Source: Candidatus Liptonbacteria bacterium (lineage in GTDB: Bacteria > Patescibacteriota > Minisyncoccia > UBA6257 > 2-01-FULL-56-20). From it: a stretch of DNA of 64,000 nt. Numbering within the stretch: the stretch's first letter is position 1; every line of letters begins with the position of its first letter. The notes beneath the pieces were generated by a model. It saw nothing but the letters and a program-made list of their open reading frames with translations, did not search any database and had not been told where the DNA came from. Below are positions 1,127 to 62,551 of the stretch, one piece after another. A program made the position numbers and the translations under genes. The DNA lies in contig JAHFLJ010000001.1 of the NCBI GenBank assembly GCA_023244935.1, positions 13,327 to 77,326 on the forward strand, written 5' to 3'.

Positions 1127-1264
1127 GTTTAAATTTACAAATTGTTTCAAGTTATTTCGCCGGCCGATTTCAACCTGCGCGAGACCTACCCTGAATACAC
1201 ACAAAATGGAGAGTTAAACGTTAATCAGATTATACCTGAATCCCCAAAAAACACAACTCCCATA

Positions 1265-1352
1265 TAGAACCTAGAACGTAGAAAGTAGAATTTAGAATGG
1301 AATCAATGCATTATTCTATTTTCTAAATTCTATGTTCTACTTTCTAATTTTT
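1265..1352. repeat. TAGAA-rich palindromic repeat (inverted pair), family also at 9709-9750, 42746-42781 and 62394-62478
   Basis: tagaacgtagaaagtagaatttagaa ... ttctaaattctatgttctactttctaa form an imperfect inverted repeat. The consensus ATTCTAAATTCTATTTTCTAGGTTCTA recurs at 4 intergenic loci. Confidence 0.6.
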
Positions 1353-2990
1353 CTACTTGAACGTCCTCGCCACCTTCACATACCAATTCTTTAACTCTTT
1401 TGCCCTGTCCGAAAAATCTTCCAGATGCACCTCGTTAATCCCCTGAATATCTTTGCTGGTCAAGAATAAATACGGCTGACTATATAAAAATATTGCCGGC
1501 ACGTCCGCGCCAATCAGCCTCAGCAATTCGTTTTGGGCATTGTTCTTATTTTCAAAAGTTAAACTTCCACGAACATCTTCAATCAGTTTATCCACGGTTT
1601 TATTATTATAAATCGAAAGATTTAATCCCGGATAAAACCTTTCCGAAGAATGCCAGAAAGAGAATAAGTCTCCGGATGAATTTACCAAATTTCCAAAAAG
1701 AAGGGCTTGATAATTTCTATTTTTAATCGGCTCCGCCAAAATCTCTTCGGCGGTCGGGGTGGAAAGCCTCACCTCAACTCCAATACTCTTCCAGTCCTCG
1801 GCGATAAGTTCGGCTGTCTTTTTCAAAAAATCTTTTTGCGGAGAAAGGAGCTCAATCTGAAGTTTGACAATTTCTTTTTTATAAGTCTTTTGGCGAATTC
1901 CATCCTCGCCAATCTTCCATCCGGAGTTATCCAAAATCTCCTCGGCTTGGCCTTTGTCATATTTCTGTGAATCCGAGGACTCTCCCGACTCCGGCAGTGG
2001 CCCGGCCTGCTTCTTGCCGTATCCCAAAAGTGCGTCATTTATTATGCGATCTCGATTAACCGCCAAAGAAAGAGCTTCCCTGACCGCCTTATCTTCCAGT
2101 AATTCATTCTGACTTTGATTTAAAAATACTGCGTAATAGTTTGAAAGAGGGAAAGCATGCAAATCATATGTTCTTTTTATTTTGGAAATATCTTCCGGAG
2201 TTACCTGCGGAAGTCCGTCCGATAAACCGGAATTAAAACTATCAATCGCATCTTCTTGTTTTGTAAAAAAGTTCAACGTAACCCTCCCGATAAAAGCCGC
2301 CTTTCCGGAATAGAACTTATTGGGACGAAGTGAATAGCTGGAAATAAAACCATCGTCTCGCTTCTCCATCTCTTCAAAAACATAAGCCCCGGAACCGACC
2401 GGCTTCAGGTTATAATTTGCCAAGCGCCAGTTAGATGCCGGAGTATCCGCAAAAATGTATTTCGGAACCGGATACAAATTGGAAAGATTATCTTCAAAAA
2501 AACCGTATGGCGAAGAAAGATTAAACTGAACTTCCAATTCGCTCACTCGGCTTATCACCACCCCCTGCCAACTGCTAAAAAATGGGGATGAAGTTTGCGG
2601 ATCTTGAATTTTCTGCAATGTAAAAATGATATCGTCGCTAGTCAATTTTTCTCCACTAGACCAAAGCAAACCCTCTTTCAATCTGACCTTCCAAACCTTT
2701 CCGGTTTTATCGCTTTCAATTTTTTCCGCCAAATCGGAAACGGAAGCAAAAGTTAGCCTCGCGATAGTCTTATCCGTAAAGGTGTCCGCAAATAACGGAT
2801 TTATAAATGATGGCTGTCCGACTATTGCCTCCGAATATTCTCCTCCGCTTGCCGGAGCCGGACGAGTATTCTCTCTTACAAATATACCCAAAAGTAACAG
2901 GCCACTGACGGTTAGTGTTCCTAACGTAAGAATGAACGCCAATTTCTCCTTGGAAGAAAAGGCGGAAAATATTTTTTTAAGCCAACTCAT
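1353..2990 (-). CDS. ABC transporter substrate-binding protein, family 5 (Opp/Dpp-like), N-terminal membrane anchor
   Basis: 545-aa ORF with an N-terminal hydrophobic segment. Its overall pattern resembles solute-binding protein family 5 (peptide/nickel). Confidence 0.65.
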   Translation of the reverse strand: MSWLKKIFSAFSSKEKLAFILTLGTLTVSGLLLLGIFVRENTRPAPASGGEYSEAIVGQPSFINPLFADTFTDKTIARLTFASVSDLAEKIESDKTGKVWKVRLKEGLLWSSGEKLTSDDIIFTLQKIQDPQTSSPFFSSWQGVVISRVSELEVQFNLSSPYGFFEDNLSNLYPVPKYIFADTPASNWRLANYNLKPVGSGAYVFEEMEKRDDGFISSYSLRPNKFYSGKAAFIGRVTLNFFTKQEDAIDSFNSGLSDGLPQVTPEDISKIKRTYDLHAFPLSNYYAVFLNQSQNELLEDKAVREALSLAVNRDRIINDALLGYGKKQAGPLPESGESSDSQKYDKGQAEEILDNSGWKIGEDGIRQKTYKKEIVKLQIELLSPQKDFLKKTAELIAEDWKSIGVEVRLSTPTAEEILAEPIKNRNYQALLFGNLVNSSGDLFSFWHSSERFYPGLNLSIYNNKTVDKLIEDVRGSLTFENKNNAQNELLRLIGADVPAIFLYSQPYLFLTSKDIQGINEVHLEDFSDRAKELKNWYVKVARTFK

Positions 2991-3004: not shown

Positions 3005-3220
3005 TTAATTCAAAAAAAGCTTATAGACCGATAGACCGATAAATACCACCGACAAGACGATTGTGGATACAAAAAAGAATTTATCCATTCCTCGCCTGGC
3101 CTGATAAAATCCACCGGCTTCTCCGCCTCCAAAAAGGCCGGACATTCCGACATTCCTCTGCTGAAGCAATACCAGCGTTATTAGTAAAACTGAAACTATT
3201 ATTAATGCTATTTCAATCAT
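3005..3220 (-). CDS. secG: preprotein translocase subunit SecG
   Basis: 71 aa with two TM segments flanking a Gly-rich loop (LLQQRNVGMSGLFGGGEAGGFYQARRG), typical of SecG. Confidence 0.75.
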   Translation of the reverse strand: MIEIALIIVSVLLITLVLLQQRNVGMSGLFGGGEAGGFYQARRGMDKFFFVSTIVLSVVFIGLSVYKLFLN

Positions 3221-5139: not shown

Positions 5140-5150
5140 ATCGTAGATTA

Positions 5151-5245
5151 TAACGTGTAACGCGTAACTTGTAACGCGTAGCACAAAGACGTGTAGCGTA
5201 TAGCATGTAACTTGTAGCGTGGAATACAAGTTGTATTTGTCATCC
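5151..5245. repeat. two ~33-bp direct repeat units upstream of gpmI
   Basis: acgtgtaacgcgtaacttgtaacgcgtagcac and acgtgtagcgtatagcatgtaacttgtagcgtgg occur in tandem. Confidence 0.4.
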
Positions 5246-5288: not shown

Positions 5289-5399
5289 AATATACTAATG
5301 TCTGCGAATTATACGAATAATACTAATAATAAGATTTAGCGAGATAGACACCAAAAAGAGATAAATCAACGAAAAGCATCCAATCACGCGGAGAATAGT

Positions 5400-5530
5400 T
5401 CTTCTTGGCCGGGCTACGAAGTTTGCCGAGCATGGTCTCCGCCTGTCGGCGGAGTCGGCAAGCTGAGTGCCAGTTCAAAACCCGCTGGGGTTTTGAATGT
5501 AGGCCAAAAAGGACTATTCGGAGCGCCCTG
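5400..5530. repeat. GC-rich structured element (hairpin ttcaaaaccc-gctg-gggttttgaa); related motif at 15295-15340
   Basis: A local GC spike in an AT-rich intergenic region. It shares ccgccNgtcggcgg...ggag(a)agtcgg with the element downstream of the 14811 gene. Confidence 0.35.
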
Positions 5531-5643: not shown

Positions 5644-7164
5644 ATGTATACATATTTAGCAGCCATCGTGGCGCTGGTTTTAGGTTTAGGAATCGGATAC
5701 ATAGTCCGAAAAAAAATAGTAGCTAAACAGCTCGGAAGTCTGGACCAACAACTACAACAAAGAACGTCTGAAGCTGAAAACAAAGCCAAAGAGATTCTTT
5801 TTACCGCCAAAGAAAAAGCCTCGGAGATACTCGAAGAAACCCAGAAAGAAGAAAAAGAAAGAAAACGTGAAATTCTGGCGCTGGAAACAAAGATACACGA
5901 ACGCGAAGAAGCCATCGACAAAAAACTAAATACCCTCGAATACGAATCAAATTCCTTACGAAAAGAACGGGAGGTTATTGAAGGTAAAGTTAAAGAACTC
6001 GAAGAAGTAAAAGAAAAAACAAAAAAGGAACTGGAAAGGATTGGTGGCTTGAGCCGAGACGAAGCCCGCGAAGCATTGTTCACGGAAATAAAAGAAAAAA
6101 GCCGTGACGACCTTGCTCGGACCTCGCAAAAACTGGAAAAAGATCTTCGGGATGAAATCGAGAAAAAAGCTAAGGAAGTTATCACCATAGCCCTTCAACG
6201 CTATGCCCGTTCCCACGTTTCCGAATTAACCACCAGTGTGTTTCACCTCCAAGATGAAGAAATCAAAGGAAAAATTATCGGTCGCGAAGGTAGAAATATT
6301 CGCGCCCTGGAAAGAGCCACCGGTGTAGAATTTATTATGGACGAAACTCCGGACACGATTGTCATTTCTTCATTCGATCCATTCCGACGTGAAGTCGCCA
6401 GTCTCGCCTTAGAAAAACTTATTAAAGACGGCCGAATTCAGCCAGCCAAAGTTGAAGAAAAAGTAGAAGAGGCTAAAGAAGAACTAACCAAAAGAATGTC
6501 GGAAATCGGCGAAGCCGCCGCGATGGAAGTTGGAGTTTATGATTTACCGAAAGAAATCCTCCAACTGCTCGGCCGACTTCACTTCCGAACCAGTTTTGGC
6601 CAGAATGTTTTAACTCACTCGATTGAAATGACTTACCTGGCCGGAATGATTGCCGGAGAACTTGGACTCAATGTTGCCCTTGCGAAGAAAGGCGCGCTGG
6701 TCCACGATATCGGAAAAGCAATTGACCACGAAGTTGAAGGGACCCACGTGGAGCTTGGTATTAAAATCTTGCGCAAATATGGAGTTGGCGAAGACGTTAT
6801 CAACGCCATGCGCTCTCACCACGAAGACTATCCTTATGCATCCCCGGAATCTTTTGTGGTTACCGCCGTTGATGTCCTCTCTGCCGCCAGACCCGGAGCC
6901 AGACGTGGAACAATGGAAAATTATATTAAACGTCTCGGTGACTTGGAAAAAATTGCCGGCGAATTTCCGGGAGTTAAACAAGCCTATGCAATTTCTGCCG
7001 GACGCGAACTCCGAGTATTCGTTACTCCGGAAAAGATTGATGACTTTGGCGCTTTGGAAATGGCTCGCTCAATCGCCAACCGAATTCAATCCGAACTTAA
7101 GTTCCCAGGAGAAATTAAAGTTAATGTCATCCGCGAGACCAGAGCAGTGGAATACGCAAGATAG
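5644..7164 (+). CDS. rny: ribonuclease Y
   Basis: An N-terminal TM helix, a long coiled coil, a KH domain (IGREGRNIRALE) and an HD domain (HDIGKAIDHE) give the classic RNase Y architecture. Confidence 0.9.
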   Translation: MYTYLAAIVALVLGLGIGYIVRKKIVAKQLGSLDQQLQQRTSEAENKAKEILFTAKEKASEILEETQKEEKERKREILALETKIHEREEAIDKKLNTLEYESNSLRKEREVIEGKVKELEEVKEKTKKELERIGGLSRDEAREALFTEIKEKSRDDLARTSQKLEKDLRDEIEKKAKEVITIALQRYARSHVSELTTSVFHLQDEEIKGKIIGREGRNIRALERATGVEFIMDETPDTIVISSFDPFRREVASLALEKLIKDGRIQPAKVEEKVEEAKEELTKRMSEIGEAAAMEVGVYDLPKEILQLLGRLHFRTSFGQNVLTHSIEMTYLAGMIAGELGLNVALAKKGALVHDIGKAIDHEVEGTHVELGIKILRKYGVGEDVINAMRSHHEDYPYASPESFVVTAVDVLSAARPGARRGTMENYIKRLGDLEKIAGEFPGVKQAYAISAGRELRVFVTPEKIDDFGALEMARSIANRIQSELKFPGEIKVNVIRETRAVEYAR

Positions 7165-7200
7165 ACTAATAACTTATCACTAATAACTGATAACTAAAAG

Positions 7201-7289: not shown

Positions 7290-7559
7290 TTAGTCCAAAG
7301 ATTGATAAATATCCTTTCTCTGCCCGATTGCGAACAGAATAATGTCCTGACTATTCAACCGAAAAATTCCACGATAAACACGAGTAACCCTGAAAGAAAA
7401 GACTCTATCACTACCGAATCCTTTCAGTTTTTTAGTATGAAGTTTCGAATTAAACATATTTTTGCTCAATAAGACTTCTTGTTTCAACAAAAATTTCCTT
7501 TCTTTATCAGAAAGCAAGGCTGTCTCCTTGACATAATTCCTGCTTTTTAAAAGAATCAT
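7290..7559 (-). CDS. type II toxin, RelE/ParE family
   Basis: 89 aa with C-terminal FRVTRVYRGIFRLNSQDIILFAIGQRKDIYQ, typical of RelE/ParE. It overlaps the upstream antitoxin gene by 4 nt. Confidence 0.6.
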   Translation of the reverse strand: MILLKSRNYVKETALLSDKERKFLLKQEVLLSKNMFNSKLHTKKLKGFGSDRVFSFRVTRVYRGIFRLNSQDIILFAIGQRKDIYQSLD

Positions 7560-7789
7560 CTTTGAAATTCTTTTAACGAATCCTTGTAAGAGGAGATTAT
7601 ATCTTTTTTATTGACATAAAGGCTCAACTCTTCAGTAGGCATCTTAGAAATCACGATGCCTTGATTTACGATAAACTGTCTGAGTGAGGCGTTAATAATA
7701 TCCGTCAAAGAAAACCCAAGCTCCCTGGCCAAATCTTGCGCCTGCACCTTCAATTCCTTTTTAGTTTTTATTAAAATAGTTGTGTCCAT
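7556..7789 (-). CDS. type II antitoxin, RelB/DinJ ribbon-helix-helix family
   Basis: MDTTILIKTKKELKVQAQDLARELGFSLTDIINASLRQFI is an RHH fold. The ATG at 7789 is preferred because the 7831 ATG lies within a TTGACA -35-like element. Confidence 0.55.
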   Translation of the reverse strand: MDTTILIKTKKELKVQAQDLARELGFSLTDIINASLRQFIVNQGIVISKMPTEELSLYVNKKDIISSYKDSLKEFQR

Positions 7790-7992
7790 ATCCGAAAGTA
7801 TATATAAACGGATAATATTGTCAAATGCCAAACTTCCGCCTCAACCCCCAGGAATCCGCGAGTTTTACGTACCCAAGCCAGGATTTTTCGGAAATTTATT
7901 TACAACCGGATACAACCAAAGCAAAAAATCGTAAGTCTTTTGATAAATTATTAGATCCTGAAGCATTTTGAAAATTAAATTCTATATTTTAT

Positions 7993-8035
7993 TTTCTCCT
8001 GTTCTTTCCGCTTAATCGGAAAGAACAGGAGAAAA
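7993..8035. terminator. bidirectional hairpin terminator downstream of the prepilin-FGE gene
   Basis: ttttctcctgttctttccg-cttaat-cggaaagaacaggagaaaa is a perfect 19-bp stem with A/T tracts on both sides. Confidence 0.6.
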
Positions 8036-8081
8036 TACAAAACCAATACTAGATTACAGATTTCAGATTACTAAACAACAA

Positions 8082-9653
8082 CTACCGAGCACAGCGGAAC
8101 CCGATGCTGCCGCCCGTATCCGTCGGACCAGTGCTCAAGATCAACGTCTCTACCCCAGCGTACGTGTCATAATACCAATCCCCACCGCGAACGAAGGCGT
8201 AAGGAGTTGACCCTCCGGCGGAGTATGAGGAATTTATCCTGCCAATTCCCTGAGTTGCGGTCCAGGCTGAATTTGAAGGTCCAGCGAGAGTTGGAGATAA
8301 GGTTCCCCAATTTGTTATGTTCGGAAACTCTCGCCATCCTGTCGGCTGTGGTTGATTTCCGTTGGTGATTGTGTCGTTAGTCCATTCCCAAACGTTCCCT
8401 GCCAAGTCCCAAATAATTTGACCATTCGAAAGAGTGTGGGCACGTCGGTGAGTGAAGTCGGCTGTGACAAGGTAGGTTGAATTGGTGTCGTCTGCAGATG
8501 CAATTTGCGCCGCAGAACCATTTGAATTTCCTCTGCCCAAGTATCCACTTCCGACTGAACTTCCGCTCCAATTACTTGATACACTCTGTGCATTCCAAGC
8601 AATTGTTTGCCATTCGTTGTTGGTGATGAGATGTGCTCCGATAGATTGGCAGTAAGAATGTGAAGTTGTTTGATCGATATTTGCGATTGGGTATCCGGCA
8701 GGAGTGGAAGTTAAATACCTTCCGGATGTATTACAAGGATATCCAGAATTATTATACGTTTGATATCCGGTATCGTAAGGTGCCGATCCAAGCGGACCCG
8801 TAGTATCCGCGCACTTGGCTTCGTATTTCATCACCCAAAAATCAGATGTTCCGAAGGTGGAGTTGCCAGGGACTCTAATCCAACCATTTGGAAAGATTCC
8901 TGCTCCAAGATTCATATTATTTCCCATTTCAAAAGAAGCGGGCGCTGTGCCTCCGTCGGTATTTCCTTGCACAATGTATTTTTGGGATTCCAGGGATACG
9001 GCGGTTAGCTTCCAGCTTCCTCCAGACATATAGGTGTAATAATTCAGACTTGTAGTGGTATTGATTGGATCGATGGGAAGTTGTGAAATTGGAGAATTGG
9101 ATGATATCTTTTGGAAGTTAACCGGAATCCAGCCGGTGCCGTCGGTTTTACGGAGATTGGCAGTGGTGACACAATTGTATTGCCAGCCGGTTGGGAGAGT
9201 TGGCAGACCTAAGTTGGCGCACGTTGAAGATATGTCCGGAATGGATACATAAACCACCGTGGGTGTTCCCATAGATCCTGTGGAGACATCTGCAGAAAAC
9301 AGATTAAGCGCGGTGTTGATTGTCGAGAGATCCGAGAATCGATTGGAATCTCTGGCTTGTTTGAGTAATTCCCCTGGGTTAAGAGCCATAATAACAACCA
9401 CACTTAAAATCGCGACTAGGGCGAGGACTACCAGGAGTTCGATAAGGGTAAAGCTTCCCCGTTTGTTTACCCTGAGAGTAGTCGAAGCCTTGCCTGCCGG
9501 CAGGCAGGGGTCAGTCTGAGCCTGCGAAGAATCTAAATTAGATCCTTCCCTGCGTTCAGGATGACAGAAAAGAGAATTCAAAAACCTGGATTGTCCAAGC
9601 AAGTTGGACAATGACAGAATAGAAAAGAAACTTCCTTTGTTTTTATTCTTCAT
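8082..9653 (-). CDS. prepilin-type N-terminal domain protein fused to a C-terminal FGE-sulfatase (SUMF1/C-type-lectin-fold) domain; start uncertain
   Basis: NKRGSFTLIELLVVLALVAIL is a class III signal. The C-terminus carries HLITNNEWQ, WDLAGNVWEWT, RGGDW and GFRCAR motifs of the FGE-sulfatase family. The gene is GC-richer than its neighbours. The ORF's first ~60 codons lie in a dispersed repeat, and no ATG/GTG/TTG lies between the repeat and the KRG site. Confidence 0.6.
   Translation of the reverse strand: MKNKNKGSFFSILSLSNLLGQSRFLNSLFCHPERREGSNLDSSQAQTDPCLPAGKASTTLRVNKRGSFTLIELLVVLALVAILSVVVIMALNPGELLKQARDSNRFSDLSTINTALNLFSADVSTGSMGTPTVVYVSIPDISSTCANLGLPTLPTGWQYNCVTTANLRKTDGTGWIPVNFQKISSNSPISQLPIDPINTTTSLNYYTYMSGGSWKLTAVSLESQKYIVQGNTDGGTAPASFEMGNNMNLGAGIFPNGWIRVPGNSTFGTSDFWVMKYEAKCADTTGPLGSAPYDTGYQTYNNSGYPCNTSGRYLTSTPAGYPIANIDQTTSHSYCQSIGAHLITNNEWQTIAWNAQSVSSNWSGSSVGSGYLGRGNSNGSAAQIASADDTNSTYLVTADFTHRRAHTLSNGQIIWDLAGNVWEWTNDTITNGNQPQPTGWREFPNITNWGTLSPTLAGPSNSAWTATQGIGRINSSYSAGGSTPYAFVRGGDWYYDTYAGVETLILSTGPTDTGGSIGFRCAR
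9510..9616. repeat. 107-bp dispersed repeat unit, copy A (copy B at 50990-51096, ~95% identical)
   Basis: gtcagtctgagcctgcgaagaatctaaattagatccttccctgcgttcaggatgac... plus the ttgtccaagcaagttggacaa hairpin. It is internally palindromic and flanked by CCTGCC...GGCAGG palindromes. Confidence 0.7.
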
Positions 9654-9881
9654 TCGTATAATTCCTGCCTGCCGGCAGGCAGGCGTATTGATTCGTAATT
9701 TCGTAATTATTCTAAATTCTATTTTCTGAGTTCTATATTCTATGTTCTAACTATACCACATTTTGCCTCTGGGGGGGGCAACAACAGCTGGGGATAGTTA
9801 AAGGACTCATAGCTTATCAACTTATAACAAATAACTAAAAAGAATTTGAGGCCGGAATTATTAGTGATTGGCGATAAGTCA

Positions 9882-11615
9882 TTAGCCATTCTTCAGCATC
9901 CCCAACATCCCTTCGACGTCTCTAGTATTTATTATATCACTTTTTTTCGCCCAACCGCGACGCGCCTGCGTAATCCCAAATTTCAAAAAATCAAAATGTT
10001 CCGAGGAATGCGCGTCGGAATCAATCGAAAGTTTCACGCCGGAATTTACGCATCTGCGAATATAATCGTCCTTCAAATCCAGCCTATCCGGGTATGCATC
10101 AATTTCTAATATCGTTCCGGTCTCTTTAGCTTTGCGGATAAGCGCCTCGGCGTCTACGGCATATGCCTCTCGCCTTTTAATAACTCTACCGGTTGGATGG
10201 AAAATTATATCTACGTTCTTATTCTCCATCGCTCTACAAATCCTTGCAGTCTGCTCTTTGCCGGATAAATTGAAATTTGAATGTACCGCTCCCCCCACCA
10301 CCTCCAACCTGGAAAGTGTTTTATCCGACAAATCCATGCTTCCGTCTTTTAAAATATCGCACTCACTTCCCTTCAAAATTCTTATCTTGCCGGCGAACTT
10401 TTTATTTAATTTATCAATCTCTGCCATCTGTTTTAAAATTTTTTTATCGTCTAAACCTCCGGTCATCGCCAATCGTTTTGTGTGATCGGTAATCGCGATA
10501 TATTTTAGTCCGCGAGAGATAGCCACCTTCGCCATCTGTTCTATGGAGTGCGCGCCGTCAGTCCAATCGGTTTGCACCTGCAAATCGCCCTGTAAATCCT
10601 TGTAGCCGATAAGTTTCGGCAATTTACCGATCATCGCCGACTCAATTTCACCGGTATTTTCTCTAATCTCCGGCTCGACATACTGAAGTCCAAGCGCGGA
10701 ATAAATCTCCTCCTCAGTTTTTCCGGCAATCTGCTTAAGTCCTCGATAAAGCCCATATTCATTAAGTTTATAGCCTTTTTTTATCGCAAGTTTTCTTAAG
10801 CCGATATTGTGCATCTTAGAGCCGGTAAAATAATTCAATGCCGACCCATAAGAATTTCTTGGCACCACGCGCAAATCAACATCCAATCCGTTTTTCAATT
10901 TTATTGATGACTTAGTTTCTCCATTGGCAACAACCTTGGCAACCGCCTGCATAGAAACAAACTCTTTCATAATTTTTTTGGAATCCTTCACGATTGCCAA
11001 AATATCCAGGTCTCCCACAGTTTCTTTTCCTCTGCGCGTTGACCCGGCAATAACAACGGTTTCAACTCCGGCAACCTCCAGAAGTTTTTCCTTAATTTTT
11101 TCGGCAAATGGCAACGCCTCACCCAAGGTAAATCGCCCACCGGATTTCTTAAGGAACTCGATGCTTTTCAAAATATTTTGTTCTGCCTTCGTTCCGAATC
11201 CTTCAAGCTTAGAAACTTTATGAGCGTTCACTGCTTTCTCGAGAGTAGCCAAGTCTTTTATTTTTAAAGCAAGATATAATTTTTTTATAGACTTAGGTCC
11301 GAGCCCTTCGATGGCGCTAAGCTCTTTTAAATTAACCGGCACGGCTTTTTGAAGCTCCGCGTAATGCGAAGACTTCCCCGTCAGAAGAAATTCTTCGATA
11401 GTTTGCGCAATTGATTTTCCAACCCCGGGAATATTCTCAATTCCTTTAATTCCGTTAGCTTTATAGATACTCACAACCGAATCGGAAAGCTCGGAAACCG
11501 AATCCCCCGCTTTTTCGTATGCTCTCGGCTTAAAAGGTTCTTCTTGCATCGCCAAAAATTCTCCTATTTCGTAAAGTAGTTCCGATACTTCTTCGTTTGT
11601 TTTCTCTTTAATCAC
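9882..11615 (-). CDS. polX: DNA polymerase X family protein with C-terminal PHP domain
   Basis: 577 aa with helix-hairpin-helix motifs (GIENIPGVGKSIA), a Pol-beta-like nucleotidyltransferase (GSTRRGKETVGDLDIL) and a PHP domain (H-rich C-terminal half). Confidence 0.85.
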   Translation of the reverse strand: MIKEKTNEEVSELLYEIGEFLAMQEEPFKPRAYEKAGDSVSELSDSVVSIYKANGIKGIENIPGVGKSIAQTIEEFLLTGKSSHYAELQKAVPVNLKELSAIEGLGPKSIKKLYLALKIKDLATLEKAVNAHKVSKLEGFGTKAEQNILKSIEFLKKSGGRFTLGEALPFAEKIKEKLLEVAGVETVVIAGSTRRGKETVGDLDILAIVKDSKKIMKEFVSMQAVAKVVANGETKSSIKLKNGLDVDLRVVPRNSYGSALNYFTGSKMHNIGLRKLAIKKGYKLNEYGLYRGLKQIAGKTEEEIYSALGLQYVEPEIRENTGEIESAMIGKLPKLIGYKDLQGDLQVQTDWTDGAHSIEQMAKVAISRGLKYIAITDHTKRLAMTGGLDDKKILKQMAEIDKLNKKFAGKIRILKGSECDILKDGSMDLSDKTLSRLEVVGGAVHSNFNLSGKEQTARICRAMENKNVDIIFHPTGRVIKRREAYAVDAEALIRKAKETGTILEIDAYPDRLDLKDDYIRRCVNSGVKLSIDSDAHSSEHFDFLKFGITQARRGWAKKSDIINTRDVEGMLGMLKNG

Positions 11616-16026: not shown

Positions 16027-16138
16027 TCATTTTTCTCATATCATGTATGATATGAGAAAAATATTAGTTACAAATCTCTATATTTATTTTTTAAAAGTTA
16101 TTGGTTATAAGTCACAAGTCATAAGTCGCGCTCCGCGC

Positions 16139-33681: not shown

Positions 33682-36600
33682 CTAGCTTTTTCGTATTGCC
33701 AGCCAAATCACGCCATCATCAACTTTGATCTCGGTTTCAGTTAAGAATTTAGGCTCTTTTTTGAATATTATTTTTGTCGCCCCGGTCTCCTTCAATATGA
33801 ACTTCTGCCACCTCTCTAGAATTCCGGATGTCATCGGTGTCGAGGCAATCATAAGCAAAACCTTGTTCGAAGGCTTCAGCTCGGCTTTTTGTCTTAACTC
33901 CGAGACTCCCCGAATTAGTTCGCGAACCAAGCCTTCTTCTCGAAGCTCATCGGATATCTCTTTATTCAATTCAACTTTTTCACCTATCTCCTTTTTCAAG
34001 GAAATAGCTTTTACATTAACTTCATCCATAATAATCGACATCAGCTCTTCATATTTGGAAAGTAATTTATATGCGTTCTCTCCCAAATATAAATCTGCTA
34101 AAGGCTGCCTGACTTTCAAGGCGGAGCTAGCTCTTTCGGCAAGCGCCAAACTGGAAACATTCCTCGCCTGTTCCATGGCCGAAACAAATTCCAATTCTTT
34201 AGAAGTTATAGGTTTAAATTTATCCCAATCCGCCAAGTGAACCGAGGATTCCAATTTTATTCCTGAATATTTTTTAACGGCTCCAAATATTGCTTCGGAA
34301 AAGAACGGGATAAACGGCGCGGATAATTTTGTAAGTGAAATCAAAACTTTTTCCAATGTTGCCGACGCCTCCAAATATTCTTGCTTAGTTTCCGGCTTCT
34401 GCAGTCTTCTTCGAGATCTGCGAATATACCATCTGGAAAGGTCATCAACAAATGCTTCGAGCGCCAAAGCGGCTTCACGCACATCATACTTCTCCATATT
34501 TTCACTAACCGAATTCCCGGTCTGAGACAACCGCATCAAAATCCACTTATCCAAAACATTCTTGGATTGTTTTACCGATCGCGAGGCCCCGCCTTTTGCA
34601 TAGGTGCGATAGAAAACAAAGGAATTGTAATACAATAAGTGAAATTTCCTGTATACCTTAAGCAATTCCGCCTCGTCAAAATTTTTTGACTCCCCCGGCG
34701 GATTAACCACGTAAAAATACCATCTAATTGCATCCATCCCATACTTGTCCGCCAGCGCCCAAGGATCAACGATATTCCCTTTGGATTTACTCATCTTTAC
34801 TCCGTTCTTGTCGTTAATTAATCCCAAACAGATTACGTTTCGATATGGCGCCTCGTGCCCAAGCAGAGTTGAAGTTGCCAACATGGTATAGAACCATCCC
34901 CTGGTCTGATCCATTGCCTCGGAAATATAATCCGCCGGAAACTCCAATTTTTTCATCAGTTTGTTCGCGTCGGTGAGTGAAACGTTTTTACCGCCGGAAT
35001 ACTTAAACGGAAAATGATTTTGCGCATACGGCATGGCCCCCGAGTCAAACCAAACATCTGCCACCTCTTTCACTCGATTCGCTCGCCCTCCGCACTTATC
35101 GCACTTTAGAATAATTTCGTCGACGTAAGGTTTGTGCAAGTCCAACTCGCCTGAACGATTTATCGGCAATGAATAAAACTTTTCTTTCCTGATTTCTCCA
35201 AATCCATATTCTTTCGCGGTTACAAATTGTTTTATCGGCAAACCGTTCATCCCCAGGCTCAAAGTTAAAAGCGGGTCTCCGTGACTAACAATAACAATTT
35301 TTTGGTCCTTGTGCCGTGAATTTATTTCTTTAATAAATTCCATCATTCGTCGCGAAACATCAAAGACGCTTTCTCCTCCGGGAGGAGTTTTCGTAAGCCT
35401 CTCCTCTCCTTGTCCATGAAATTCCCGATACTCTTTTATCGGACGCCAGTTAAACACGCCGGTGTTTATTTCAGTCAACCGATTATCAAAGATTATTTCT
35501 GCGCCGGTTGCCGAACTTATTTCTCGAGCCAACTGCGAAGTCCTGGTCATCGGCGATGCGTAAATTACATCTATTTTCTCTTTATTCAATTTGCCTGCGG
35601 TTTTTTTAGCTTGTAACTCTCCTCTCTTGGTTAGAGGCGCGATATTCTTGCCGACCTCTATCCCGCTAGCAACAAATCCACCGACATTACTTTCCGCTTC
35701 GGTGTGACGCACCAAATAAAACGAATTCTTATAATAATCATTTTCTTTTATCTCGCTAACCGCTCCAATAACTTTTATCGCCGAGCAATCACCGCACCGC
35801 CAAATCGGGAGCGGAGTTCCCCAATATCGCTCACGAGAAATATTCCAATCTTTTGCCTCTTTCAGCCACTCGCCAAACCGCCCTTCTTTAATATGCTCCG
35901 GCACCCAAGCTATTTTTTCATTCTCCGCGGAAAGCTTACTTCGCAAACGACTAACCTCCAAAAACCAAGAACGGCGCGCGAAATATATTAGAGGAGAACC
36001 ACACCTCCAACAAAATGGATATTCGTGCTCGATTTTTCCGGAAGAGAACATCAACCCACGATTAACTAAATCCGCAGAGATATCCGCATCAGCTTCCTTA
36101 ATAAACTTTCCCTCCCCGGGAAGTCCGGCAATCACTTTTCCCTCATCGTTGATTGTTGTGAGTAATTCAATATCCGGATAATGCTCAGCAACCAACTGGA
36201 AATCCTCTTCTCCAAACGCCGGCGCAATATGAACAAACCCGGTTCCGTCTTCAGTGGAAATAAACCCTGCCGGCAAAACTTTAAACATTTTTTGGACATC
36301 TTGTCCGGCGACTTCAAATAGGGGCTTATATGAAAGACCTACCAATTTACTTCCGGAAATTTTTTCCACCGCCTCGGCAAAAATTTCTTTTCCGTTTTTA
36401 TCTTGAGTTGTCGGCGGAACACTATATGACCAAATATAGTCTCCTCCTACTTTATATTTTGTGTAAGTCAAATCCGCGCCAACCGCCACGAACATATTCG
36501 AAGGCAACGTCCACGGAGTTGTCGTCCAAATTAAAATGTATTCATTCTTATGCCCGGCATCCAAAACCTTCAACTTCACATAAACCGAAGGATCCGGAAC

Positions 36601-37203
36601 TTTTTTATAAACTCCCGGCTGAGCAATCTCGTGACTTGCCAGAGCCGTCTGACAACGAGAGCAATATGGAATAACCTTTCGCTTCTCTTTCAAAAATCCC
36701 CTATCGGCAATTGCCTTAAAAACCCACCACAAACTTTCGATGTAACTATTTTCATAGGTTACATACGGGTTCTTCATATCTAGCCAATATCCCATTCTTT
36801 CGGTTAATCTCTCCCACTCATCTTTGTATTTCCAGACAGACTCTTTTGCTTTTTCGTTAAACAAATTAATCCCGAACTTTTCCAAATCCCGCTTATTTTT
36901 TATTCCCAATTCTTTCTCTATTCCTACTTCAACTGGGAGGCCATGAGTATCCCAACCGGCGCGTCGCGGGACATAAAACCCGCGCATAGTTTTGTAGCGC
37001 AGAATTATGTCCTTAAAAGACCTAGCTAAAACGTGGTGAATTCCCGGTTGCCCGTTGGCTGTCGGCGGACCTTCATAAAAAACAAATTCTTTTTTGCCCT
37101 TTCGCTTCGATAAACTTTTCTCGAAAATTTTGTCTCGTTTCCAGAATTCTAAAACCTTTTTTTCAACTTCGGGTAGGCTAAATTCGGTGTTTTCGTTAAG
37201 CAT
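33682..37203 (-). CDS. ileS: isoleucine--tRNA ligase with an internal histidine-phosphatase (PGM-family) domain insertion
   Basis: HIGH (PPTANGQPGIHH), KMSKS, zinc knuckles CxxC (CSRCQ, WRCGDC, CDKCGG) and the anticodon-binding region are present. 1173 aa. Residues ~490-685 (LVRHTEAESN...PPGGES...VIVSHGD) form a histidine phosphatase fold between the two Zn knuckles. Confidence 0.9.
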   Translation of the reverse strand: MLNENTEFSLPEVEKKVLEFWKRDKIFEKSLSKRKGKKEFVFYEGPPTANGQPGIHHVLARSFKDIILRYKTMRGFYVPRRAGWDTHGLPVEVGIEKELGIKNKRDLEKFGINLFNEKAKESVWKYKDEWERLTERMGYWLDMKNPYVTYENSYIESLWWVFKAIADRGFLKEKRKVIPYCSRCQTALASHEIAQPGVYKKVPDPSVYVKLKVLDAGHKNEYILIWTTTPWTLPSNMFVAVGADLTYTKYKVGGDYIWSYSVPPTTQDKNGKEIFAEAVEKISGSKLVGLSYKPLFEVAGQDVQKMFKVLPAGFISTEDGTGFVHIAPAFGEEDFQLVAEHYPDIELLTTINDEGKVIAGLPGEGKFIKEADADISADLVNRGLMFSSGKIEHEYPFCWRCGSPLIYFARRSWFLEVSRLRSKLSAENEKIAWVPEHIKEGRFGEWLKEAKDWNISRERYWGTPLPIWRCGDCSAIKVIGAVSEIKENDYYKNSFYLVRHTEAESNVGGFVASGIEVGKNIAPLTKRGELQAKKTAGKLNKEKIDVIYASPMTRTSQLAREISSATGAEIIFDNRLTEINTGVFNWRPIKEYREFHGQGEERLTKTPPGGESVFDVSRRMMEFIKEINSRHKDQKIVIVSHGDPLLTLSLGMNGLPIKQFVTAKEYGFGEIRKEKFYSLPINRSGELDLHKPYVDEIILKCDKCGGRANRVKEVADVWFDSGAMPYAQNHFPFKYSGGKNVSLTDANKLMKKLEFPADYISEAMDQTRGWFYTMLATSTLLGHEAPYRNVICLGLINDKNGVKMSKSKGNIVDPWALADKYGMDAIRWYFYVVNPPGESKNFDEAELLKVYRKFHLLYYNSFVFYRTYAKGGASRSVKQSKNVLDKWILMRLSQTGNSVSENMEKYDVREAALALEAFVDDLSRWYIRRSRRRLQKPETKQEYLEASATLEKVLISLTKLSAPFIPFFSEAIFGAVKKYSGIKLESSVHLADWDKFKPITSKELEFVSAMEQARNVSSLALAERASSALKVRQPLADLYLGENAYKLLSKYEELMSIIMDEVNVKAISLKKEIGEKVELNKEISDELREEGLVRELIRGVSELRQKAELKPSNKVLLMIASTPMTSGILERWQKFILKETGATKIIFKKEPKFLTETEIKVDDGVIWLAIRKS

Positions 37204-42631: not shown

Positions 42632-42800
42632 GTATATTTGTTTTTTTCGGTCGACGTTTATGCAAATCAAAGAGCTAATACTGATTAAAATAATGCATCC
42701 CCGAAGAAGTTCTTGCAAGCCCCGCGACTGCTTTCTCTTACCTTGTATTCTAAATTCTATTTTCTAGGTTCTATTTTCTATCCACGTTATAATTCCTCCT

Positions 42801-50953: not shown

Positions 50954-50989
50954 ACATATTCATTCGTAAAATTCCTGCCGATAGGCAGG

Positions 50990-51096
50990 GTCATTCTGAG
51001 CCCGCGAAGAATCTAAATTAGATCCTTCCCTGCGTTCAGGATGACAGAAAAAAGAATTCAAAAAACTGGATTGTCCAAGCAAGTTGGACAATGACA
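50990..51096. repeat. 107-bp dispersed repeat unit, copy B
   Basis: ~95% identical to 9510-9616, preceded by the cctgccgataggcagg palindrome and followed by an ATTCGTA-rich sequence. It generates the spurious ORF 50960-51175. Confidence 0.7.
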
Positions 51097-51202
51097 AACC
51101 GAAAAGCTTCTTTCTCTTGTTCGTATTATTTTTATTATTCGTAGACATTCGTATATTAATATTGTTATGAGTCACAAGTTATAAGTTATTAGTCATAAGT
51201 TC

Positions 51203-52879
51203 CTAAATCCACGGAATCGGCCCGGTCGTCCCCTCAACTTCGTCAAAAGTAGTCATCCCGGACAAAACTTTCAAAACTCCGTCTTGTTGCATGGTCACCA
51301 TCATCTGCTTCTCCGCCAGCTTTCGGAGAGAGCGCTCGGAAACTTCGGTTAAAATAACTTCTTCCAACTCCGGCCCACCTTTGAAAAACTCGAAAATTCC
51401 TCGTCTTCCTTTATAGCCAAAACCATTACAAGTCTCACAGCCAACCGGCGCGAAAACCGTTATTTTTTCATATGGTTTTTTATCTACTCTTGCCGGAACC
51501 TTTTCCAAATATTTTTTTATCTGCTCGATTTTTTTTGCGTCCAAATCAACCGGTTTTTTACAATTGTCGCAAAGCTTCCTAACTAAGCGTTGAGCAATGA
51601 TTAAAGTAACCGCCGGACCGATGCTTGCCGGCTTTACGCCAACGTCAACAAGACGCGGGATTGCGCCGACCGCGCTATTGGTATGAAGCGTAGACAAAAC
51701 CAAATGCCCGGTTAACGCTGCTTGAATCGCAATTTCCGCAGTCTCTTGATCGCGGATTTCACCGACGAGAAGCACATCCGGGTCTTGACGCACGATTGCT
51801 CTTAATCCTCCGGCGAAAGTATACCCGGCGTCCGGATCAACTTGTGTTTGCTCAATTCCTAAAATTCTATATTCAATCGGATCTTCAACGGTAATAATTT
51901 TTGTTTCCGGGTCAACCAACTTTCGGAGGAACGCGTAAAGAGTCGTGGTTTTTCCGGAGCCGGTCGGTCCTGTATTCAAAATCAGTCCATTTGGCCTTTT
52001 TAGCTCCGCTTCCACCAGAGCCAGGTCGTCCTCTCGCAGACCGAGCTGTGGCAAGGTCACATTAATTCCCGCCGGATCCAAAATACGCATAACAATTGTT
52101 TCTCCGAATTCCGAAGGGATAAGCGAAACGCGCATTTCGATTTCTTTTTCCGGCAACCCTATTGTAAATCTTCCGTCTTGTGGCTCGGAATGAACATTTA
52201 ATTTTAATTCGCAAAGTAATTTTATTCTGGTAACCAAGCTGACATAGTTTTTTATCGGCAAATTTGCGATGTCGTGAAGTAGTCCATCCACGCGATACCT
52301 AACCCGCGCATCTTTTTCTTGAGCTTCAAAATGAACGTCAGAGGCTCTGGTGGTTAACGCTCCGGCTAAAAGTGTTTCCAAAAGACTCGACACGCTTGCG
52401 GATTTATAATCAAAGGTTGCCAGGGTCTGTTGAACCATCTGAAAAGTCTTAAACTTTTGCATATCCTCAGCGAATCTCACCGCGTCGATATTTATTCCGC
52501 CGGTAATTGACTCTTTCCCTTTAGAAACAAATTTATAAAATTCCAGGGCTTGTTTAACCGCCGACAAAGAGACTACGAACGGCTTAATTTTATATCCCTT
52601 TTCTTCCAAATAGGTAATCGCTTTTTGCGCCTCTTCGGTTGTTGGGTCATAAAAAATTACCGCTAAGTCTTTATTATTTAATTGTATGCCAACTCCCAAA
52701 GCCTTCCTTGCTTCCTCTTCCGGAAGCAAAGCAACCGCCTCAATCGAAATCGGAGTTTTCCCTAGGTCAGCGTAAGTCAACTTAAGTCTCTCGGCGCGAC
52801 GCTTCGCTTCCCGCTCCTCTCCGGCGCGCCTAATTGCTTCTAATTTATTCGTTAACTCACCTTGGGGTGTAAGGTTCAT
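51203..52879 (-). CDS. pilB: type II/IV secretion system ATPase (PilB/GspE family)
   Basis: Walker A GPTGSGKTTT, Asp box, Walker B and His box, a tetracysteine motif CDNC...CETC, and an N-terminal GSPII-like domain. Confidence 0.85.
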   Translation of the reverse strand: MNLTPQGELTNKLEAIRRAGEEREAKRRAERLKLTYADLGKTPISIEAVALLPEEEARKALGVGIQLNNKDLAVIFYDPTTEEAQKAITYLEEKGYKIKPFVVSLSAVKQALEFYKFVSKGKESITGGINIDAVRFAEDMQKFKTFQMVQQTLATFDYKSASVSSLLETLLAGALTTRASDVHFEAQEKDARVRYRVDGLLHDIANLPIKNYVSLVTRIKLLCELKLNVHSEPQDGRFTIGLPEKEIEMRVSLIPSEFGETIVMRILDPAGINVTLPQLGLREDDLALVEAELKRPNGLILNTGPTGSGKTTTLYAFLRKLVDPETKIITVEDPIEYRILGIEQTQVDPDAGYTFAGGLRAIVRQDPDVLLVGEIRDQETAEIAIQAALTGHLVLSTLHTNSAVGAIPRLVDVGVKPASIGPAVTLIIAQRLVRKLCDNCKKPVDLDAKKIEQIKKYLEKVPARVDKKPYEKITVFAPVGCETCNGFGYKGRRGIFEFFKGGPELEEVILTEVSERSLRKLAEKQMMVTMQQDGVLKVLSGMTTFDEVEGTTGPIPWI

Positions 52880-53853: not shown

Positions 53854-53972
53854 ACGGATAAATTCCTTAAAAATGACCCTTCGTAGCCACGCGCTACGGG
53901 GCGAAGTAGAGTTCCGCGAAGTCGCGGCTAGTTATTAGTGATAAGTAATTAGTTATAAGTTATTATTAACCC

Positions 53973-61968: not shown

Positions 61969-62395
61969 TTGGGAAGAATATACAAAAGAATTATTCAACA
62001 AAATGGGGTTTGCGGACTTCAGTTTTGACTTTGACGCCGAACACCGGCACGGCGGAGTTTTTCTATATGAAAAAGATCTGATAATAAAGGACAACCTGGC
62101 TTTTTTTGTCGAGAATCTAAACCACGTTTTGCAGTTGGTTGCTCAAAAAAATGGCGAAGATAAAGTTTATATAGATATAAACAATTATAGGAAAGAAAGA
62201 GAAAAACTTCTTATAGAATTGGCCAAAGCCGCCGCTCGCAAAGCCGTCTCCACCAAGCAAGAGATTCCGTTACCGGCAATGAATTCTTATGAGAGAAGAA
62301 TTGTCCACGCGGAGTTGTCCGCCCGACCCGATGTAAAGACCGAAAGCCAAGGGATGGGAAGAGAAAGATTTATAACAATAAAACCGCTCGATTAG
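61961..62395 (+). CDS. jag: Jag/KhpB-like R3H-domain RNA-binding protein
   Basis: A C-terminal R3H region (YERRIVHAEL). Canonical position after yidC. Confidence 0.7.
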   Translation: MINWEEYTKELFNKMGFADFSFDFDAEHRHGGVFLYEKDLIIKDNLAFFVENLNHVLQLVAQKNGEDKVYIDINNYRKEREKLLIELAKAAARKAVSTKQEIPLPAMNSYERRIVHAELSARPDVKTESQGMGRERFITIKPLD

Positions 62396-62478
62396 AAAAT
62401 AGAACATGGAATTTAGAAAATAGAATAATACATCGATTTCATTCTAAATTCTATTTTCTACGTTCTAGGTTCTAACCG
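62394..62478. repeat. TAGAA-family palindromic repeat (inverted pair) between convergent genes
   Basis: tagaaaatagaacatggaatttagaaaatagaata ... cattctaaattctattttctacgttctaggttcta. It probably acts as a bidirectional terminator. Confidence 0.6.
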
Positions 62479-62551
62479 CCCACATTCTGTCATCCTGAAC
62501 AAAGGGAATGTTCTCTTCTTATTAATACACTAGATTTCCTGCCTAAAGTTA

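Follow-up and report, generated by a model that had tools for sequence, protein, structure and literature searches.

Where can translation of a type IV pilin gene begin when its only route to a start codon leads through a dispersed repeat? The question is raised by the one pilin gene found in the window (the whole stretch of 64,000 nucleotides analysed here), an open reading frame (ORF) of 523 codons in which a prepilin leader and a type IV pilin module are followed by a C-type-lectin module of the FGE-sulfatase type. We favour, at a joint probability of roughly 0.55, the reading that this gene specifies a modular type IV pilin of an uncultured, ultra-small bacterium of the candidate phyla radiation (CPR, Patescibacteria) with a lectin-like binding head, that translation would start from the ATG at 9653, that a repeat-encoded leader of 67 residues would be removed by prepilin peptidase, and that the product would be a pilus-borne lectin adhesin of the type diversified by diversity-generating retroelements (DGRs). 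In other respects the gene is an ordinary member of its family, the oddity being local to its 5' end.

Three profile matches of the protein exceed their cut-offs, namely N_methyl (Pfam; 25.2 vs. 21.2 bits, residues 63–87), TIGR02532 IV_pilin_GFxxxE (NCBIfam; 17.7 vs. 16.3 bits) and FGE-sulfatase (Pfam; 47.3 vs. 23.3 bits, residues 306–437). Both the class III prepilin signal and the FGE-sulfatase domain had been proposed in a sequence-only reading of this DNA and are borne out by these scores, the thresholds being curated ones. The motif has the small residue at -1, the Phe (or Met) at +1 and the Glu at +5 that characterize prepilins. Among 113 homologues the residue preceding FTLIE is Ser in 56, Gly in 32 and Ala in 25, and is thus small in 113/113; because one of these three residues precedes the Phe across the family, cleavage is placed after Ser67, before Phe68. 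The leader that the earlier reading had counted as 63 residues from ATG 9653 is therefore one of 67. Downstream of this site the hydrophobic start of a long N-terminal helix, as expected of a type IV pilin, is found in the AlphaFold2 model (pLDDT 76–83 for helix residues 70–90) and in the profile matches to solved pilins. Confidence in the model is highest for residues 250–523 (pLDDT 80–93), moderate for the N-terminal helix and about 35 for residues 1–67, which are predicted to be disordered. Foldseek comparison of the 250–523 model with the PDB gave as top matches TaqVP (5vf4), which is a DGR variable protein, formylglycine-generating enzymes (FGEs) and Mtd (1yu3), with TvpA (2y3c) further down. 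The 456 codons of the mature part are intact and retain every family-invariant residue. The earlier statement that the gene is GC-rich relative to its neighbours holds only weakly: its GC content of 0.474 is 1.8 standard deviations above the mean of 22 long ORFs (0.422, standard deviation 0.029), and that of ruvB is 0.475. Through its N-terminal pilin module the protein would be incorporated into a type IV filament or located at the filament tip, where the C-terminal domain would act as a ligand-binding head.

FGE carries two catalytic, Cu(I)-binding cysteines between its GGS/W and GFRC motifs. The segment of the window protein between RGGDW and GFRC, DWYYDTYAGVETLILSTGPTDTGGSI, forms the variable region and is devoid of cysteine, and the FGE-sulfatase alignment covers only positions 74–201 of the 255 in the profile. 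An FGE enzyme was ruled out because the catalytic cysteines are absent, and since no cysteine lies between RGGDW and GFRC the domain is better regarded as a binding module; the protein is almost certainly not an enzyme. The C-type-lectin-fold binding module of the sequence-only reading agrees with this and with the structural matches to DGR variable proteins and FGE. The likeness to FGE/SUMF1, EgtB and OvoA lies in the Pfam FGE-sulfatase match and in the fold, whereas the catalytic-cysteine segment of FGE/SUMF1 corresponds to the cysteine-free variable region of the window protein. Homologues are named "SUMF1/EgtB/PvdO family nonheme iron enzyme" by NCBI; as the protein is almost certainly no enzyme, this automatic name is misleading, and it is the wrong annotation for these proteins.

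The C-terminus of the family reads RGG.W…AGVE.L.L…GFRCAR, with hypervariable residues at fixed sites. At two orthologous loci, L005 and L006, a second copy of the final ~117 nt of the gene is found 0.5–0.9 kb downstream, after a bAvd gene, with 85–88% identity, and the mismatches between this template repeat (TR) and the variable region (VR) fall at TR adenines in 17/17 and 11/14 cases, respectively. The gene order at L090 is target, bAvd, TR and reverse transcriptase (RVT_1). An A-biased TR was found in 11 of the 19 loci at which the pilin-lectin gene is full-length and followed by at least 1.2 kb of DNA. Consistent with active diversification, the family member P0006 and its cluster mates P0121 and P0122, which lie on other contigs, are identical over 490 residues, and all 11 differences are in the last 37. 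In many orthologues the adjacent bAvd–TR–reverse transcriptase cassette rewrites the VR by adenine-specific mutagenic retrohoming. The window protein has the scaffold of such a target: a C-terminal C-type-lectin fold, variation at AAY sites, and orthologues that are targets. Its VR, compared with the heterologous TR of L005, is mismatched at 48% of TR adenines and at 12% of other sites. Since this VR bears the imprint of a DGR and the window carries no cassette, it would either be frozen or depend on a DGR located beyond the window.

Three further observations concern these cassettes. In the window the site that they occupy in orthologues is taken by a putative toxin-antitoxin pair (7290–7831, reverse strand), in which a RelB/DinJ-like antitoxin gene (7556–7831; TIGR02384 at 29.6 bits, below the cut-off of 45.65) overlaps an 89-residue partner ORF (7290–7559) by 4 nt. 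L149 (176–3152) contains a tandem pair of pilin-lectin genes whose ends lie at 1282 and 2489 and which both match the TR at 3035–3152 with A-biased mismatches; judged by these matches, a single DGR serves two pilin targets. At L090 the DGR reverse transcriptase gene is directly followed (8403–10358) by that of a large serine recombinase (Resolvase, Recombinase and HTH domains), a hint that the cassette may be mobile.

Relative to the Phe at +1, the in-frame canonical start codons of the window gene are the ATG at -67 and TTGs at -53, -50 and -43 (9611, 9602 and 9581), with no others, so that at least 43 codons separate the cleavage site from any of them. The sequence-only reading had stated that no ATG, GTG or TTG lies between the palindrome and the cleavage motif, with which the frame check agrees; the ambiguity of the start is real and the alternatives that it listed were the right ones. 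Upstream of Phe68 no stop interrupts the pilin frame for 98 codons, a longer run than expected by chance, the other two frames having 7 and 6 stop codons in the same span. A Shine-Dalgarno motif was found in 0 of the 28 confident window genes, all 28 of which start with ATG in an A/T-rich context; the context of ATG 9653 fits this pattern, and those of the internal TTGs do not. Because Shine-Dalgarno motifs are not used and because the pilin of L004 starts in the same TATACGAATG context, a start at ATG 9653, supplied by a tract of 7-nt period, is favoured. Prepilin leaders are short, hydrophilic and basic, typically 5–30 residues in length. The leader translated from ATG 9653 would be hydrophilic and basic too, and would be removed by prepilin peptidase before Phe68; since a leader is discarded, in-frame insertions free of stop codons would be tolerated within it. 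A search with the 67-residue leader alone gave no scoring match, a result that says nothing on other leaders of this type. Elsewhere in the window many ATGs (e.g. 41999, 47727, 49614 and the 29407 region) lie 6–10 nt past a TGnTAnAnT extended -10-like box, a pattern suggesting that much of the translation in the source genome is leaderless or Shine-Dalgarno-independent.

The earlier claim that the 5' end is built from a dispersed repeat and a palindrome is confirmed by the alignment of 9508–9616 with 50988–51096 (109 nt, 96% identity). From 5' to 3' on the coding strand the order of elements (Table 1) is a C8 tract, the TGTGGTATAGT box, the TAGAAnn/TACGAAn tracts, palindrome 1, AATTATACGA-ATG, element 1, element 2 and palindrome 2, after which 12 more codons lead to NKRGS/F (the slash, here and below, marks the cleavage site). 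The palindrome CCTGCCTGCCGGCAGGCAGG is perfect over 20 nt and occurs at three sites in the window (5269, 9489 and 9664), the last two bracketing both the repeat and ATG 9653. The predicted fold of the leader-region RNA is much more stable than those of shuffled sequences (z = -5.9), and in it the two palindromes pair with each other. A consensus scan of the 5' region revealed no two-hexamer promoter; Rfam gave no family match to 9350–9900 at E ≤ 1, and at gathering thresholds only a tmRNA and a tRNA in the whole window. The C8 homopolymer (9771–9778; L006:67–74) is situated 10 nt upstream of the conserved TGTGGTAnAnT box both in the window and in L006, and could be a length-variable promoter element.

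Table 1. Features of the pilin gene, of its 5' region and of related sites in the window
Positions	Strand	Feature	Evidence or remark
8082..9653	-	Complete ORF of 523 aa, with prepilin leader, pilin module (type IV) and C-type-lectin module of the FGE-sulfatase type	
9453..9653	-	Putative 67-codon leader (M1–S67), from ATG 9651–9653 to the predicted cleavage site before F68	10 K/R, 4 D/E
9393..9467	-	Class III (prepilin) signal motif NKRGS/FTLIELLVV..., Glu at +5 (aa 63–87)	N_methyl, TIGR02532, -1 residue statistics
9288..9446	-	Long N-terminal alpha-helix of the pilin module (aa 70–122)	AlphaFold2 secondary structure; profile matches to solved pilins (Geopilin, PilA)
8085..8906	-	FGE-sulfatase-type C-type-lectin fold domain (aa 250–523; Pfam core aa 306–437)	Pfam, AlphaFold2, Foldseek, profiles
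8083..8199	-	DGR-type variable region (…FVRGGDWYYDTYAGVETLILSTGPTDTGGSIGFRCAR*), last ~117 nt / ~39 residues	Homologous to VRs of orthologues with TR; no TR in window
7987..8040	-	Perfect hairpin 42 nt past the stop codon; probable terminator	
9750..9760	-	Extended -10-like box TGTGGTATAGT, putative	Conserved in L006; resembles boxes of other window genes
9686..9759	-	7-nt-period tracts (TAGAAnn, then TACGAAn), putative 5' untranslated region	Homologous to region upstream of L006 orthologue
9664..9683		Upstream palindrome CCTGCCTGCCGGCAGGCAGG, 10 nt before ATG 9653	Pairs with downstream palindrome in predicted RNA fold
9508..9616	-	Dispersed repeat copy A, 109 nt; leader codons 13–49	96% identical to 50988–51096
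9580..9612	-	Element 1: hairpin ATTGTCCAA-cttgc-TTGGACAAT, then CCAGGTTTTT; scores terminator-like	Also in copy B and upstream of L006 orthologue
9509..9565	-	Element 2: imperfect hairpin GTCATCCTGAACGCAGGGAAGGATCT…AGATTCTTCGCAGGCTCAGACTGAC (also given as GTCATCCTGAAC…CTCAGACTGAC)	Directly before KRRS/FTLIE in L005
9489..9510		Downstream palindrome (CCTGCCTGCCGGCAGGCA), leader codons 49–55	
50960..51175	-	Repeat copy B and flanks, directly after the PilB-like ATPase gene	62-codon ORF from ATG 51148, pilin-leader frame
51203..52879	-	PilB/GspE-type assembly ATPase; besides it and the pilin gene, no type IV filament gene in the window	T2SSE 408.7 bits

The second copy of the repeat had been dismissed as giving only a junk ORF. 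It is correct that no pilin is attached to it, but the frame corresponding to that of the pilin leader is open there. The 5' module of this copy is homologous to the true pilin start of L004 (MSTNNKNNTNK… vs. MSTNYTNNTNK…), yet no pilin follows; it could be a pilin 5' end left on its own, or no more than the terminator region of pilB. Miniature inverted-repeat transposable elements (MITEs) have terminal inverted repeats with a target-site duplication outside them and occur in many near-identical copies. Here two palindromes of 18–20 nt bracket a segment of 155 nt, and the 109-nt core is present in only two copies in the window, of which copy B has one palindrome. The strings coding for NK(R)GSF on either side of the bracketed segment are similar and not identical, and a clear target-site duplication was not found; AACAAAGGAAGTTTC and AACAAACGGGGAAGCTTT were considered as such, and the duplication could not be established. 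It resembles the MITE-like and repetitive extragenic palindrome (REP)-like hairpin repeats which are short (50–110 nt), imperfectly paired, dispersed, mostly intergenic and often located at gene ends. It differs in lying here, as in two orthologues, within an ORF as the only route to the start codon, and no transposase or target-site duplication is demonstrable. Strict tracts of 7-nt period (TAGAAnn, TACGAAn, GTAACnn and AGTnAnA families) also occur in most of the intergenic regions of the window (1264–1356, 5150–5215, 7164–7194, 9686–9759, 16104–16131, 42740–42783, 51120–51205, 53938–53965 and 62391–62491), and some form long inverted pairs between distant loci (1265–1348 with 62391–62474, 93% complementary).

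More than 1,625 homologues were recovered at E ≤ 1e-5, nearly all with N_methyl and FGE-sulfatase domains and 440–500 residues long; those with names belong to Ca. Wolfebacteria and Paceibacterota. For 35 genes of the family upstream DNA was available, and their leaders, counted from the nearest canonical start, have 2–37 residues (median 12), with no such start in two genes; the window leader, at least 43 residues from any canonical start and 67 from the only ATG, is an outlier. Close relatives possess short leaders that begin at a clear ATG, namely MVLFQNKARAS/FTLIE in L001, MSTNYTNNTNKNRSS/FTLIE in L004 and MPPNRRSS/F in L089. Nevertheless, other members of this clade have built their leaders from the same materials as the window gene. 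The start of the L004 pilin, the only one possible, lies together with its leader in the TATACGAATG… heptad module, which recurs in the window at copy B and at 5290–5340. In L005 (61% identical) element 2 abuts KRRS/FTLIE in frame and the only starts are at -32 and -57. Upstream of the L006 gene (57% identical) are found C8, a TGTGGTAATAT box, heptads, ATGAAGAATAAA, element 1 (46/48 nt identical) and a different hairpin, all in frame. From these three loci it appears that repeat modules have repeatedly supplied the start and leader of pilins in the clade. In the L005 lineage the repeat-encoded leader is unchanged while the VR diversifies, so that leaders of this kind are compatible with a maintained gene. 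A conserved leader extending upstream of the repeat, which the sequence-only reading had named as a point that would count against it, is not shared by the orthologues.

Two relatives have leaders in which the frame is broken. In L003 (60–120), the closest orthologue at 73% identity and sequenced to a coverage of 2.9x, there is no in-frame start before FTLIE and the ATG is off by one across an A7 tract, which is either a sequencing error or homopolymer phase variation. In L099 (4690–4800) a (GA)~15 tract separates the only upstream ATG (4697), which is out of frame, from the FTLIE codons (4791). This locus has an A-biased TR at 6704–6817, P0037 and P0059 carry in-frame "RERERE" leaders, and the tract resembles a switch that would turn a DGR-diversified pilin on and off by slipped-strand mispairing within its leader. 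Gene callers mis-start many members of the family, either by over-extension into repeats or by a start placed after the signal peptide.

A number of observations weigh against the reading that we favour. None of the 35 loci examined has a leader as long as 67 residues, and the longest characterized prepilin leaders are, to our knowledge, of about 30 residues, less than half this length. ATG 9653 lies only 10 nt past a GC-rich palindrome of 20 nt, the RNA of the leader is predicted to be strongly structured, which could hinder initiation, and element 1 resembles an intrinsic terminator situated within the reading frame. Repeat copies A and B differ by four changes, every one of which is nonsynonymous when read in the pilin frame; constraint on the leader at the protein level is thus not in evidence. 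Among the window ORFs scanned there is neither a prepilin peptidase (Peptidase_A24) nor a PilC, and neither an RVT_1 nor a bAvd gene. The 64 kb contain no cognate TR, the last 619 nt of the gene having no second copy there (blastn, word size 7). The nearest orthologous loci (L001, L004, L087 and L089) also have no TR, and three assemblies carry the nearest orthologue at 100% identity, even in the VR; because of these two findings, diversification may be extinct in the subclade.

Alternatively, the gene could be silent, a composite repeat insertion or rearrangement having taken its original short leader and start and left a young pseudogene, or an OFF variant, of a once DGR-diversified pilin in which the open upstream frame is fortuitous or recent. 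In favour of this reading are the distance of at least 43 codons between the cleavage site and any canonical start (2–37 in relatives), the toxin-antitoxin-like pair in place of a DGR cassette, the terminator-like hairpin and strong RNA structure inside the putative leader, the similar ORF with no pilin at copy B, and the lack of an in-frame start in the orthologues L003 and L099. We nevertheless regard it as unlikely, if worth serious attention, since the mature part is intact down to its family-invariant residues, since 67–98 stop-free codons are improbable given 6–7 stops in the other frames, and since the context of the ATG is that of the usual starts in this genome; moreover, the repeat-in-leader design is held in frame in L005 and L006, and the L005 lineage is actively diversified. 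The long leader could also be shortened, to 43–53 residues, by a start at one of the TTGs within the repeat (9611, 9602 or 9581), with ATG 9653 left in the 5' untranslated region. These are the sole other canonical in-frame starts and the frame is open across them, but in a genome whose confident window genes all begin with ATG no Shine-Dalgarno motif is available to select a TTG, the TTGs sit in the hairpin stem or tail of element 1, and the leader would be abnormally long all the same; such a start seems quite improbable.

It is also conceivable that the 5' region is a regulatory device, instead of or besides coding, either an attenuator or RNA switch or a palindrome-bounded site of recombination or phase variation which gates the adhesin pilin. 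That idea is compatible with translation from ATG 9653. It draws on the conservation of element 1, 96% among its two window copies and L006 as against ~84% for nearby coding DNA, on its terminator-like character, on the pairing of two palindromes around the start codon, on the simple-sequence tracts which throw the ATG out of frame in relatives ((GA)~15 in L099 and A7 in L003), and on the C8 tract adjoining the -10-like box in the window and L006. We consider it improbable in view of the absence of any Rfam match and of the recurrence of similar hairpins and palindromes at intergenic sites and ends of genes with no relation to the pilin, both here and in other CPR loci, as would be expected of generic REP/MITE-like elements; in addition, the L003 frameshift may, at 2.9x coverage, be a sequencing error. 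Excision between the two palindromes was considered, and was rejected as a switch: a precise deletion creates no start codon, its product having a TAG nine codons upstream and no ATG. Lastly, the contig is a metagenome assembly in which repeats of 96–100% identity occur at three or more window sites, and a mis-join at the dispersed repeat or the palindrome might conceal a real gene with a normal short leader. This is very improbable indeed, as the independent assembly of L006 has the same order (-10-like box, 7-nt tracts, ATGAAGAATAAA, element 1 and then a hairpin) and L005 has, again independently, element 2 abutting the cleavage motif.

Returning to a translated and processed leader, one might suppose that the prepilin leader in this CPR clade is a landing pad for intergenic hairpin and heptad modules, which would be translated within leaders of 32–67 residues and processed all the same, and that these modules, jointly with the (GA)n, A7 and C8 tracts of relatives, form a layer of on/off control or attenuation over a DGR-diversified adhesin pilin. 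We offer this tentatively and think it doubtful; if true, one surface-recognition gene would join expression switching at its 5' end with retroelement-driven diversification at its 3' end.

The neighbours of the pilin gene are housekeeping genes (those for RNase Y, PolX, a ClpB-like protein and aminoacyl-tRNA synthetases, dnaA/dnaN and tmRNA) and, from these and the named homologues, the window would be chromosomal DNA of a CPR bacterium. A GC-rich and hairpin-rich segment between the genes for iPGM and RNase Y (5380–5520, forward strand), which has no ORF call and no Rfam match at the gathering threshold, could be an unannotated small RNA. At 33682–37203 (reverse strand) a class I aminoacyl-tRNA synthetase (tRNA-synt_1 and Anticodon_1) has a histidine-phosphatase domain (His_Phos_1, residues 495–660) inserted in its catalytic domain, which is an unusual fusion.

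The family can be compared with several described systems. No class of DGR targets is larger than that of the FGE-sulfatase C-type-lectin domains (PMC5758913). With TvpA of Treponema denticola and TaqVP of Thermus aquaticus, the "CLec1 / category b" targets of Wu et al. 2018 (PMC5758913), the window protein shares the fold class (2y3c, 5vf4) and a VR at the extreme C-terminus, ending in GFRC, with variable codons derived from AAY, and its orthologues share the target–bAvd–TR–reverse transcriptase cassette with adenine-specific mismatches. These targets have a lipoprotein signal or none, whereas the window protein has a type IV prepilin signal, and the window copy is without TR, reverse transcriptase or Avd within 64 kb. 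A G-type pilin domain was listed among the rare VR-bearing proteins in a 2024 survey (PMC11661182). The DGR targets of CPR bacteria were found by Roux et al. 2021 (PMC8144416) to be usually without recognizable membrane, anchoring or other domains, an impression which is contradicted by the pilin-lectin family with its recognizable anchoring domain. On the pilin side, the IPR012902–IPR005532 architecture, with 8 proteins, is included among the modular pilins in Dataset S1 of Raynaud et al. 2021 (PMC8179133). PilB (vWA module) and PilC (lectin module) of Streptococcus sanguinis (PMC8179133) are alike in that a ligand-binding module is grafted onto a pilin module with a class III signal. The graft in the window protein differs in being of the FGE-type C-type-lectin fold and DGR-diversifiable; the residue at -1 is mostly Ser in the window family, and the leader of S. 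sanguinis PilB has 7 residues as against 67. Type V pili of Bacteroides with DGR-diversified adhesins (bioRxiv 10.1101/2024.11.15.621889) offer a likeness of concept, that of a pilus-borne adhesin hypermutated by a DGR, in another pilus system (type V vs. type IV) and another phylum. No paper describing DGR-diversified type IV pilins of CPR bacteria as such was found in the literature searched.

The family is therefore common and its architecture already catalogued, the only unusual feature of the window gene being the start codon and 67-residue leader made from intergenic repeats. The repeat-built leader is a curiosity, and would be important only if it is translated and cleaved, or is regulatory. 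At the level of the family, the link between DGRs and type IV pilins in CPR bacteria deserves a note. These bacteria are thought to live attached to other cells, type IV pili being the best-supported device for attachment, and a pilin family with a DGR-diversifiable lectin head is a candidate for the means by which CPR cells recognize changing partners.

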